From a virus: DNA of 64,000 nt. The notes below the pieces were generated by a model. The model was not told the origin of the DNA. It ran no database searches and saw nothing but the letters and a program-made list of their open reading frames with translations. Below, piece by piece: positions 9,966 through 11,785 of the stretch; positions within the stretch are counted from its first letter, which is position 1; every line of letters starts with the position of its first letter. The DNA lies in IMG/VR virus record IMGVR_UViG_3300022555_003222, positions 1 through 64,000 of that record. One strand, 5' to 3'. A program made the position numbers and the translations under genes.

Positions 9966-10559
9966 ATGAACCCCGTTCTATTTGTTACCTCACATCTTTG
10001 TTCTGGTGCCGATGGCTTGATTTCTATCTTGAACATCAATCCACGTATTGAGATGCTCTGCCCACAAATCGTTTATGAGCACCCCACTGATCTAGAGCCG
10101 TTAATAGAACAACAACATAAATTGAGTAATACAGCAGCTATTTACGGTGATTACTTGTGGTATAATTCTCAATTTTCATGTAAAGCTCTTTATAAACTTT
10201 GCAAATTCGTTTATGTGATACGAGAGGCCAAATCATCTATAAACGAGATAACAGAGCATTACAGGCACAGCATAGACATGGTGCCTGCGTACTATGCGTT
10301 TAGGCTTAGAAGAATTTGCGAAATGGCCAAACGAACTCCAGGTGCAGTTTTATTAACCTGGAATGATTTAGCTACAGGCAAAGGGTTGCCGCTAATTGAA
10401 GAGTATTTGCGACTGAAAACCCCATTGATACATCATGCAGAATTATTCACGCACAGTGAATTAGATGATGTGCCGAATGAAATTATTGAAAAATCTCAAG
10501 AATGTTACGAACGACATTTATATTTCTTACGACACCTTGAGCTTCGCCAAACCGTATAA
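9966..10559 (+). CDS. Sulfotransferase-like P-loop protein (degenerate)
   Basis: VLFVTSHLCSGADGLISILNINPRI and KFVYVIRE echo the sulfotransferase 5'-PSB and 3'-PB regions. Confidence 0.5.
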   Translation: MNPVLFVTSHLCSGADGLISILNINPRIEMLCPQIVYEHPTDLEPLIEQQHKLSNTAAIYGDYLWYNSQFSCKALYKLCKFVYVIREAKSSINEITEHYRHSIDMVPAYYAFRLRRICEMAKRTPGAVLLTWNDLATGKGLPLIEEYLRLKTPLIHHAELFTHSELDDVPNEIIEKSQECYERHLYFLRHLELRQTV

Positions 10560-11102
10560 TTCTATAGGTGTTTTCTTTCCGATTTTAGAACTAAAGATCA
10601 CAGCGTCACAAGATATTCTGTCTCCATCAAAATATTTGCCGCCCTCGTACTTTTCACCCGTACCTTTTTTAACATACGCTATTGTTACATGTGGATGATA
10701 TCGAGGATATTTATCCGTATATTCTAAAGCGTCTGCTAATTCCTTGCGAATTCGATGCAAATCAGGACTGATCACATCGATTTTCACTACATCAAATTGT
10801 GGATTGTTGTTAAAAATTGCAACTTTTCCCAATTCCAACACAATGGGTCTTTCTGATCGTAAGATTTCTTCCGCTGTCTTTTCAGAAGAATCATGTATTC
10901 CATATAATACAGTCACGTGAATTTCGTCTTCACGTCCATATTTTCCATCCGCATTGTAAATGTCTTCGGGCGCAATATTATCCTTTCCCCATTTGATTAC
11001 CTTGTTAGCAACCTTTCCGGGTAATCTTACATGCGTTGAAGAAAATTCATGTTGAACATTATTCCGTTCAATCCAAAAGTGGTTCCACGTCCTGATTGGC
11101 AT
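10527..11102 (-). CDS. 2H phosphoesterase, Acb1/T4 gp57B-like
   Basis: Two HxT motifs: EIHVTVLYG and YHPHVTIAY. Confidence 0.85.
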   Translation of the reverse strand: MPIRTWNHFWIERNNVQHEFSSTHVRLPGKVANKVIKWGKDNIAPEDIYNADGKYGREDEIHVTVLYGIHDSSEKTAEEILRSERPIVLELGKVAIFNNNPQFDVVKIDVISPDLHRIRKELADALEYTDKYPRYHPHVTIAYVKKGTGEKYEGGKYFDGDRISCDAVIFSSKIGKKTPIELYGLAKLKVS

Positions 11103-11418
11103 TTATTGCTTTCTTTTTATTAAGGTCGTCTATTATTTTTTCTTGCTCTTTGATCATTTGATCAAGGAAGCTAACGGCATGCTTTTGTTGTTGAGGACTA
11201 ACCAGGGTACTAGTCTTCAAATCAAGCTGCCATTTTTCGTGTGCATTCATCGTATCGCCATCTGATTTTTTAGCCTGTTTGTGTTCAACAGCATAGGCTT
11301 CATTAATGGCTCGTCTTATAGCTACTCGTAAATTTGTTACTGCATGGCTATCCGTAGGAAGTTGTCGCAAAGCCCTTTCTAACAATTCTCTACTGTCCTT
11401 TATGTTCTGACTCTTCAT
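11068..11418 (-). CDS. Hypothetical helical protein
   Basis: ORF in operon; GGAG SD precedes ATG 11418 (MKSQ). Confidence 0.65.
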   Translation of the reverse strand: MKSQNIKDSRELLERALRQLPTDSHAVTNLRVAIRRAINEAYAVEHKQAKKSDGDTMNAHEKWQLDLKTSTLVSPQQQKHAVSFLDQMIKEQEKIIDDLNKKKAINANQDVEPLLD

Positions 11419-11785
11419 GTTGTCTCCAATACCTTTCTGCACTCGTCATGGCTCGAATAATATTTCTTGAACCAACTGGGTTAAACGAATGCACAGTCCA
11501 TATAAATCTAGGTAGGGTGCCAGCGTGTGCTTCTCTTTCCACCCACTGTGCAACCTCGTATCCAGTTCCAGCTTCGGCGGGTCCGAGATCATGATCAAAA
11601 CTCATGTAGGTCACTTCTCCCCCGTCCAGTATCCGAATGGCAGCTTTTGCACTTTTGACCCATGTCATTCCAGATCGAGCATGAAACTCTTCTTGAATAA
11701 ATGGATCATCAGGATCTCGCTCATCATCAAGCCAAAGTGATATTCCAGAAGATTTGGTTTCTATCCAATTAGTAAAATGTTTCAT
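11390..11785 (-). CDS. Cyclic-phosphate-processing receiver-domain-like protein
   Basis: Motifs LWLDDER, SFDHDLG, TGYEVAQW, VHSFNPVG. ATG 11785 (MKHFTNWIE) overlaps the terminase stop as ATGA. Confidence 0.8.
   Translation of the reverse strand: MKHFTNWIETKSSGISLWLDDERDPDDPFIQEEFHARSGMTWVKSAKAAIRILDGGEVTYMSFDHDLGPAEAGTGYEVAQWVEREAHAGTLPRFIWTVHSFNPVGSRNIIRAMTSAERYWRQHEESEHKGQ

Follow-up and report, generated by a model that had tools for sequence, protein, structure and literature searches.

Why should a phage keep two small predicted nucleotide-processing enzymes, a 2H phosphoesterase and a receiver-like protein of the cREC family, within its head operon, between the genes for the large terminase subunit and the portal? 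The question arises from a 64,000-bp stretch of DNA (hereafter the window; positions 1 to 64,000 of IMG/VR record IMGVR_UViG_3300022555_003222), which opens one viral contig 130,808 bp in length (GC 42%). The source is an uncultured freshwater huge phage with T4-type head genes. The relatives that match it best, also uncultured, are huge phages of 300-670 kb, and CheckV puts the completeness of the 131-kb contig, on which no terminal repeat was found, at ~26%. An initial annotation, made from the letters of the window alone, proposed a counter-defence cassette in which both enzymes carry tag-like N-termini, destroy signalling nucleotides and heal cleaved RNA, possibly after packaging in the virion.

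Our answer, given with modest confidence from sequence comparison, is that the 2H protein and cREC are on balance packaged and injected enzymes which process cyclic phosphates within a larger RNA-repair cargo. The domains of the two proteins, the coupling and synteny of their genes, the similarity of their tags to those of T4 and the enrichment of such tags at gene starts, the protease gene, and the turnover of the slot that holds cREC are all observed features of this phage and its relatives.

Enzyme genes coupled to the terminase gene

The T4-type head module lies on the minus strand and runs from terminase through cREC, a small helical open reading frame (ORF), the 2H gene, the portal, an ORF of 603 amino acids (aa) and the protease to a probable scaffold and the major capsid protein (Table 1). 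Here the initial annotation had recognised a receiver-like protein carrying LWLDDER, SFDHDLG and HSFNPVG, coupled to the terminase stop and followed by a helical ORF and a 2H protein with paired HVT motifs. This arrangement stands: the start codon of cREC and the TGA of terminase share the four letters ATGA (11782-11785), the three motifs are present in a protein that matches cREC_REC (PF20274; E 1.5e-22, 80.5 bits against a cut-off of 27), and HVT occurs at 2H residues 62-64 (10911-10919) and 138-140 (10683-10691). The genes originally listed are thus all in place, but the cassette was one gene short: a conserved ORF on the opposite strand, without a Pfam or PHROG match, lies between 2H and portal; it converges on the 2H gene, and the two overlap by 33 nt. 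Because the helical ORF overlaps cREC by 29 nt and the start of the 2H gene by 35 nt, and no terminator-like site lies between the terminase, cREC, helical ORF and 2H genes, the last three are probably co-transcribed with terminase.

Tags resembling the T4 capsid-targeting sequence

According to the relevant passages of a review (PMC9026906), the capsid-targeting sequence (CTS) of T4 comprises the first 10 residues, which in IPIII are enough to direct a protein into the capsid; targeting depends on residues 4 and 7 and processing on residues 8 and 10, the protease gp21 cleaves after L/I-x-E, and relatives of T4 hold varied cargo with CTS-like leaders. The T4 leaders read MKTYQEFIAE (IPII and IPIII) and MKTFKEF (IPI). 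Residues 1-9 of cREC are MKHFTNWIE (F4, W7, I8, E9), and residues 1-12 of the 2H protein are MPIRTWNHFWIE, ending in TWNHFWIE (W6, F9, W10, E12), with the T4 spacing shifted by two. Both show two aromatics at a spacing of three, followed by an aliphatic or aromatic residue and, after it, by Glu.

At least 10 further ORFs of the genome, several of unassigned function, are headed by this pattern. Two tags, MKTFNEWLTE and MKTFKEWLIIQE, fit T4 exactly (F4, W7, L8 and E10 in this exact-fit cargo); another reads MKTFTQWIEA. Among the proteins that can be named, a HAD_SAK_1 phosphatase bears MKFSEWLQE, a nucleotidyltransferase of the PolyA_pol/CCA family bears MSYPSFKDYVVFKE, and an ArfB-like peptidyl-tRNA hydrolase is tagged as well (Table 1). 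Codons vary between the tags, and the genome that bears them also encodes a gp21-family protease, a Portal_T4 portal and a T4-type terminase. With a strict form of the motif, a match stands behind 7 of 324 early ATGs, in 6 genes, compared with 67 of 36,147 positions overall and 2 of 685 later ATGs (binomial p 3e-6). Early here means within the leading 41 codons of 199 ORFs picked greedily, a choice that dropped cREC and two small tagged ORFs. A looser scan returned 21 of 1,156 ATGs, a few of which are probable chance matches.

In the AlphaFold models, the predicted local distance difference test score (pLDDT) is 89.6 for the 2H protein and 91.1 for cREC, and falls below 50 over residues 1-16 and 1-11, respectively, ahead of confident cores. 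Close homologues of both proteins exist with and without a tag, and most begin at the core. Judged by these models and homologues, the tags are add-on modules. The tag-like N-termini noted in the initial annotation are thereby borne out, through leaders of low pLDDT, agreement at the positions that determine the T4 CTS, and enrichment at gene starts.

Leaders of this kind were also encountered elsewhere. A 112-aa ORF with a GTG start (6938-7276, plus strand), situated between the portal and the 603-aa head ORF, begins with the CTS-like KRFNEYVKMRE. In many relatives (L013 2273-3196, L016 3610-4545, L020, L029, L015/L017, L026 and L010) a protein of 265-440 aa lies between terminase and 2H and starts in a CTS-like manner, for example MRSFTEFLEE, MSFADFIEKK or MTYTKFGTFLE; three of these proteins were scanned against Pfam, two without a match and one (L017) with Effector-associated domain 9. 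In phage T4 (L082), the gene for Acb1, gp57B (5953-6411), directly adjoins ipI (5592-5879), and the start of T4 Acb1, MMEFKDFST, resembles the IPI leader MKTFKEFTST.

An exchangeable slot for cREC at the terminase stop

The conserved residues of cREC in the window comprise D20, D21, R23, K44, S62, D64, D66 and N102, and the receiver-like acidic residues D20, D21, D64 and D66 are invariant in 12 aligned cREC sequences (alignment A2). The best PDB folds for its model are response-regulator receiver domains, albeit weak (E 4e-3, TM 0.4-0.5), and no PDB sequence matches it. As described in the sections of PMC7824862 and PMC9503650 devoted to it, the family was defined by comparative genomics, is receiver-like yet never linked to histidine kinases, and has the predicted role of resolving either 2',3'-cyclic phosphates or 1''-2'' cyclic ADP-ribose phosphate; the same section of PMC9503650 called it experimentally uncharacterised in 2022. 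In Ochrobactrum phage vB_OspM_OC, cREC adjoins genes annotated as polynucleotide kinase and RNA ligase 1, and in RaK2-like GenBank phages it lies under features annotated as nudix hydrolase.

The cREC gene sits in a cassette that has been exchanged between close strains. A sister strain, represented by metagenome contigs L191 and L188, is 96.8% identical in DNA to the window over terminase (13744-11830) and 96.4% identical over 11440-9900, and blastn finds no similarity between the two across 11441-11829. There the sister strain has ~1.2 kb encoding a 269-aa LAGLIDADG endonuclease (PF14528 LAGLIDADG_3, 29 bits) followed by a cREC of its own (PF20274, 94 bits), ~47% identical to that of the window save for the final 15 residues, which the two have in common and which coincide with the overlap of the helical ORF. 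Each of the alleles retains a tag as well as the catalytic Asp residues. The terminases of relatives end in KEFGW; that of the window extends 15 codons further, into the start of cREC, and these last ~15 codons differ because they lie inside the swapped cassette. In public runs, whose contigs show presence only, contigs of X2, X3 and X4 (two studies) span the slot in the window form without differences, and those of X6 (another study) diverge at exactly 11440 and 11830. Other homing-endonuclease-like genes occupy the terminase junction in relatives, such as one in L002 with NUMOD3 and endonuclease-I-like domains. A second phage (L101, the same as L210) has terminase, a tagged cREC (MQTFNQFLIE), the helical ORF, the opposite-strand ORF and portal, and no 2H gene. 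Together with the turnover of the slot, this phage marks cREC as mobile cargo of the slot, carried with or instead of 2H, and its cREC without 2H fits the published view of the two as functional analogues.

A second type of tag, unlike the T4 CTS, was seen in cREC loci of other phages (L097/L206, L220, L183, L173, L187, L192/L193, L203 and L117), in which runs of 5-11 neighbouring, unrelated small genes, cREC among them, start MNWYK(K/E/T)(A/S)(Q/K). Such a start heads cREC at 14 of the 80 metagenome loci and at 2 of the 80 from IMG/VR, and in the literature searched MNWYK was met only in unrelated papers.

Conservation of the gene order

We surveyed 81 2H loci, namely L001 and the best 80 of 274 confirmed IMG/VR matches. 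Terminase lies upstream in 41 of the 81 and portal downstream in 38; the opposite-strand ORF was found by tblastn in 37, always between the 2H gene and portal. Of the 46 loci with terminase or portal, 43 contain the helical ORF according to a hidden Markov model (HMM) of alignment A3, and of the 35 others none does; in the three head-context loci missing it the 2H gene is near a contig end. By both tblastn and HMM, cREC was found in 0 of the 81 loci. Conversely, the 2H HMM matches 0 of 80 IMG/VR cREC loci and 1 of 80 metagenome cREC loci, that one being a sister strain of the window phage, and two huge-phage contigs which carry both genes have them 45 kb and ~360 kb apart. On these counts, the conserved unit is the helical ORF with 2H, not cREC with 2H, such that the linkage of all three genes expected at the outset holds for the first pair and fails for cREC. 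GenBank phages contain no DNA nearly identical to 9900-13800 of the window; the nearest named record, LR756511.1, a 595-kb uncultured phage, has the same gene order without cREC.

The helical ORF matches nothing in Pfam or PHROGs, its best PDB profile match has an E of 0.23, and the Atlas returned only unnamed viral clusters with scores ≤0.80. In the 35 loci without head genes, 2H is often part of a larger protein, seven of which were scanned against Pfam. Portals of the lambda type, type 3 and Mu type are fused to 2H in L062, L077 and L081, the L077 fusion additionally bearing a Zeta/AAA_33 kinase domain. In L043, 2H is embedded in a polyvalent protein of 2,248 aa that also carries the RNase domain PBECR1, and in L045 it is fused to a nucleoside-deoxyribosyltransferase-like domain. 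Passages of PMC9503650 predict that 2H domains fused to portal or MuF are packaged and injected, and the portal fusions seen here fit this prediction.

Affinities of the 2H phosphoesterase

The residues H62, T64, H138 and T140 are invariant in 40 aligned family sequences (alignment A1). The two HxT motifs lie on an internally duplicated alpha+beta fold, as defines the 2H superfamily, and every strong PDB match is a 2H enzyme. The family numbers 194 proteins at E ≤0.001 among 259 candidates, many of them on contigs of 150-670 kb.

The initial annotation had likened the protein to Acb1, the T4 enzyme that degrades cyclic nucleotides, and the comparison with known families upheld this in part. 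The Pfam model for Acb1 (PF23474) matches the window protein at 29.8 bits against a cut-off of 27, less than the 38.8 bits of PF13563, and matches 40 of 40 aligned family members; T4 Acb1 itself scores 202.7 on PF23474 and matches no other Pfam family. Below E 0.001, the profile of the 2H family matches no PDB sequences other than the Acb1 entries 9q2g (7.6e-6), 9q2y (3.3e-4) and 7t26 (6.6e-4); no paper on the first of these, the BCSR5 phosphodiesterase, was found in the literature searched. Both motifs read H-x-T-x-x-Y, as in Acb1. The base-stacking aromatics of T4 Acb1 are Y12, W74, F107 and W147, as stated in the structural passages of PMC9117128. Two of the four have aligned aromatics in the window protein (F97 with W74, and Y132 with F107); Y12 falls outside the aligned region and no residue aligns with W147. 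The C-terminal lid of Acb1 (145-152) and its E141 have no counterpart, the hhalign alignment stopping at T4 residue 128, and the family ends instead in a conserved FSSK-G-K strand without Trp.

Fold and profile comparisons lean the other way. The protein has the architecture of LigT (~170-185 aa including an N-terminal strand-helix), and hhalign gives E. coli ThpR a probability of 91.5% over 111 columns, against 54.4% over 86 columns for T4 Acb1. In BFVD, phage proteins annotated as cyclic phosphodiesterase rank above those annotated as Acb1, and the matches include proteins annotated as capsid morphogenesis or structural. LigT_PEase (PF02834) scores 18.4 bits for the window protein, below its cut-off of 23.3, and matches 28 of 40 family members at E ≤0.01; Foldseek alone does not separate the 2H subfamilies, all of which score E ~1e-5. 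Subfamily placement is thus split, with motifs and PDB sequence matches leaning toward Acb1, and fold and profile toward LigT/ThpR. We regard the 2H protein as a predicted enzyme of a distinct phage family, of LigT-like build with Acb1-like motifs.

Other features of the locus and contig

Table 1. Positions of the features discussed, in window coordinates
Feature	Position	Strand	Basis
Large terminase subunit, T4-type	11782-13734	-	Pfam Terminase_6N/6C
Swappable cassette (terminase tail and most of cREC)	11441-11829	-	blastn boundaries against sister strain
cREC receiver-like protein, 131 aa	11390-11785	-	Pfam cREC_REC PF20274
Helical protein, 116 aa, function unassigned	11068-11418	-	own HMM across loci
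2H phosphoesterase, 191 aa	10527-11102	-	PF13563, PF23474, HxT motifs
Opposite-strand ORF, 197 aa, function unassigned	9966-10559	+	tblastn conservation
Portal, T4-type (gp20 family), intein-interrupted	7355-9898	-	Portal_T4 E 3.6e-72; Intein_splicing E 8.9e-13
Prohead protease, T4 gp21 family	4250-4963	-	Peptidase_S77 PF03420, 95.6 bits, E 1.7e-28
ArfB-like peptidyl-tRNA hydrolase, N-terminal tag MRSFQEYVVLRE	19557-20033	+	RF-1 domain 55.2 bits; tag scan

Scans of 9800-14400 for sigma-70-like promoters and terminators gave matches at chance level, except for a hairpin at 14204-14237, outside the cassette. This perfect 15-bp GC-rich hairpin with T-runs on both sides resembles a bidirectional terminator, and sits upstream of the terminase operon between two plus-strand ORFs. 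The heptamer CTAGATA was considered as a late-promoter motif, as it stands upstream of several tagged genes; the window has 6 copies against 7.1 expected, and the candidate was dropped. In addition to the Intein_splicing match, Pfam reports a helix-turn-helix for the intein-bearing portal of the window. The portal of L101 (4395-8138), at 1,247 aa, appears to hold two insertions. The last 200 bases of the contig (130600-130808) encode a Cys-rich stretch which may be the zinc-finger end of a protein of the TnpB/IS200-605 type.

Discussion

We infer a course of late co-expression, packaging, cleavage, injection and substrate turnover. If the tags behave as in T4, then the tagged genes would be expressed late, along with terminase and the head proteins; the tag would dock 2H and cREC into the prohead core, where the gp21-type protease would cleave after the tag Glu, and the trimmed enzymes would be ejected with the DNA into the next host. 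There they may hydrolyse the 2',3'-cyclic phosphates left on RNA ends by metal-independent defence RNases or, alternatively, small cyclic or linear nucleotide products. Cargo with the same kind of tag, comprising the HAD 'Swiss-army-knife' phosphatase, the enzyme of the CCA-adding/poly(A)-polymerase family and ArfB, may act alongside, the joint effect of the kit being to clean the ends of tRNA and mRNA and to free stalled ribosomes. The HD domain of the E. coli CCA-adding enzyme reportedly has 2',3'-cyclic phosphodiesterase and phosphatase activities of its own, which we offer as background only.

We favour healing of RNA ends as the purpose because the other tagged enzymes form a coherent set, which could open the cyclic phosphate, remove the phosphate, rebuild CCA and free ribosomes. 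The LigT-like build of 2H points the same way, as do the kinase domain found in one portal fusion and the RNA-repair contexts in which cREC occurs elsewhere. A broader proposition, which we put forward tentatively and regard as rather doubtful in its entirety, is that a modular T4-like tag pre-loads the capsids of huge freshwater phages with an RNA-repair and translation-rescue kit that acts before phage gene expression, that the slot at the terminase stop, with its homing endonuclease, exchanges cREC alleles, and that cREC and 2H are interchangeable.

Several observations weigh against packaged RNA repair. The tag motif heads only 13 of 40 non-redundant 2H homologues in head contexts (4 of 28 elsewhere), and packaging by tag therefore cannot be general for the 2H family; in several relatives the N-terminus is of another kind, TYRPFTD. 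Some tags read W-I-E, with Glu one residue earlier than in the I-x-E of T4, and the protease may therefore fail to cut them. Searches for families of RNA ligase, RtcB and AAA_33-type kinase (PF09511, PF09414, PF01139 and PF13671) gave no match in the 131 kb; as this is about 26% of the genome, and PF09511 matched 0 of 14 control genomes, the null is not evidence of absence. The few dozen enzyme molecules that might be injected may be too few for bulk RNA repair, and the substrate class of the 2H protein is divided, its sequence leaning toward Acb1, its fold and profile toward LigT.

This last division sustains a different account, in which the 2H protein is a functional Acb1 acting on the cyclic oligonucleotides of type III CRISPR or of the cyclic-oligonucleotide-based anti-phage signalling system (CBASS), and cREC clears the 2',3'-cyclic phosphate products. 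We think this unlikely, and the same holds for its corollary of an anti-signalling pair working late in the cytoplasm, from the capsid, or both. Family-wide matches to the Acb1 model, with the window protein above its cut-off, the restriction of PDB sequence matches to three Acb1 entries, the H-x-T-x-x-Y motifs, the two aligned aromatics and the L045 fusion to a nucleoside-deoxyribosyltransferase-like domain all speak for it; the greater proximity of fold and profile to LigT/ThpR and the missing lid do not. Degradation of cyclic-oligonucleotide signals stays a live alternative because the motifs are Acb1-like, and it and the healing of RNA ends are not mutually exclusive.

The two proteins might instead be ordinary late cytoplasmic enzymes, left out of the virion, which repair RNA or process nucleotides solely in the producing cell, the shared peptide serving translation efficiency, a degron or binding of a phage chaperone. 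Since defences set off by terminase, portal or capsid proteins come into play late, an enzyme made late and kept in the cytoplasm could serve against them, and the 27 of 40 family members without the peptide keep the same gene position. We nevertheless consider both this location and such a role for the peptide quite improbable: the peptide agrees with the T4 CTS at exactly its four determinant positions and heads unrelated proteins with varied codons, and the phage has T4-type portal, protease and capsid genes, with 2H relatives elsewhere fused to portals.

A role in head assembly, with the helical ORF as a packaging or assembly factor (for example small-terminase-like or core) and 2H serving assembly or DNA packaging, seems to us very improbable. 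In its favour, the helical ORF comes straight after terminase at most loci and is so regularly present, no T4-type small terminase was found (PF11053, 0 matches in a search covering ~26% of the genome), and no same-strand ORF lies directly upstream of the terminase gene. Against it, the helical ORF resembles no known family (Pfam, PHROGs, PDB, Atlas), which with the PF11053 null leaves its identity as a small terminase a guess, and the 2H gene is dispensable in L101. To our knowledge, no role of 2H enzymes in head assembly is known, which also counts against it.

Capsid targeting of the T4 type, Acb1, LigT and cREC are already known, as is the prediction that some 2H domains are delivered by virions. 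What is new here is the conserved unit of 2H and helical ORF in the terminase-portal gap of a huge-phage clade; the cargo slot for cREC at the terminase stop, with a homing endonuclease and two alleles in lake metagenomes; and the occupation of the module by cREC without a 2H gene. Also new are the apparently T4-like tags on stand-alone 2H and cREC proteins, within a wider tagged set of putative RNA-repair type. The literature searched, supplements being outside the search, gave no account of CTS-tagged enzymes in huge phages, or of the unit or slot; the supplements of PMC9117128 (Acb1 homologues), PMC7824862 and PMC9503650 (architectures) may already include the 2H family.

Should the tags work as in T4, then capsid targeting would be a general and evolvable means of delivering enzymes, beyond small inhibitors, and repair of RNA damage or removal of nucleotide signals could start at injection. 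The cREC family gains a concrete setting, as a stand-alone predicted enzyme of 13 kDa that comes in two natural alleles and has a 2H analogue in the slot; should cREC and 2H prove interchangeable there, their predicted functional equivalence would have its first support from gene context. The phage 2H family, large and conserved, stands between LigT and Acb1, and to learn its substrate would help to mark off RNA repair more sharply from anti-CBASS activity. For phage engineering in laboratory strains, short natural tags able to carry foreign enzymes into large capsids would, moreover, be of practical interest.

Comparison with known systems

The closest parallel to the proposed cargo is that of the T4 internal proteins IPI, IPII and IPIII, in which a short N-terminal peptide likewise heads unrelated proteins, its positions 4 and 7 being aromatic and 8 aliphatic, with Glu following at 9 or 10. 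Common to both are also the T4-type portal, protease and capsid genes and a cargo locus that varies strongly from one close strain to the next; in T4, the injected IPI* works against host defence. T4 packages small basic proteins and inhibitors, whereas the candidates here, known from genes alone, are enzymes (2H, cREC, HAD, CCA and ArfB), several of the tags have an earlier Glu, and the genes lie inside the terminase-portal operon.

With Acb1 (T4 gp57B; Erwinia phage FBB1, 7t26; Burkholderia phage BCSR5, 9q2g) the window 2H protein shares the 2H fold, the HxT/HxT tetrad, the Tyr at +5, aromatics at the W74 and F107 positions and a phage origin. It differs in being ~40 residues longer, with a LigT-like N-terminal strand-helix unit and no C-terminal lid (E141, W147), and scores lower against Acb1, in structure and profile, than against LigT/ThpR. 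From the latter (E. coli ThpR 5ldi; T. thermophilus 1iuh; D. radiodurans CPDase 5h7e) it is set apart in that no PDB LigT sequence reaches E 10 with the HMMER family profile, in its sub-threshold PF02834 score, its virion-associated gene context and its N-terminal tag.

The cREC proteins of jumbo phages, as treated in the pertinent parts of Iyer et al. (2021, PMC7824862; 2022, PMC9503650), share with that of the window, a clear member of the family, the conserved Asp pairs, a phage origin and neighbours of RNA-repair type, whereas the window cREC is stand-alone, bears a CTS-like tag, is coupled to terminase and occupies a slot serviced by a homing endonuclease. Finally, 2H domains in polyvalent proteins and in fusions with portal or MuF are treated in PMC9503650 as predicted to be packaged, and the 2H family of the window, at 36-45% identity, likewise turns up in portal-2H fusions and inside proteins of 2,000-3,600 aa; in place of such covalent fusion, the link of the window enzymes to the virion would be a removable tag together with gene position.

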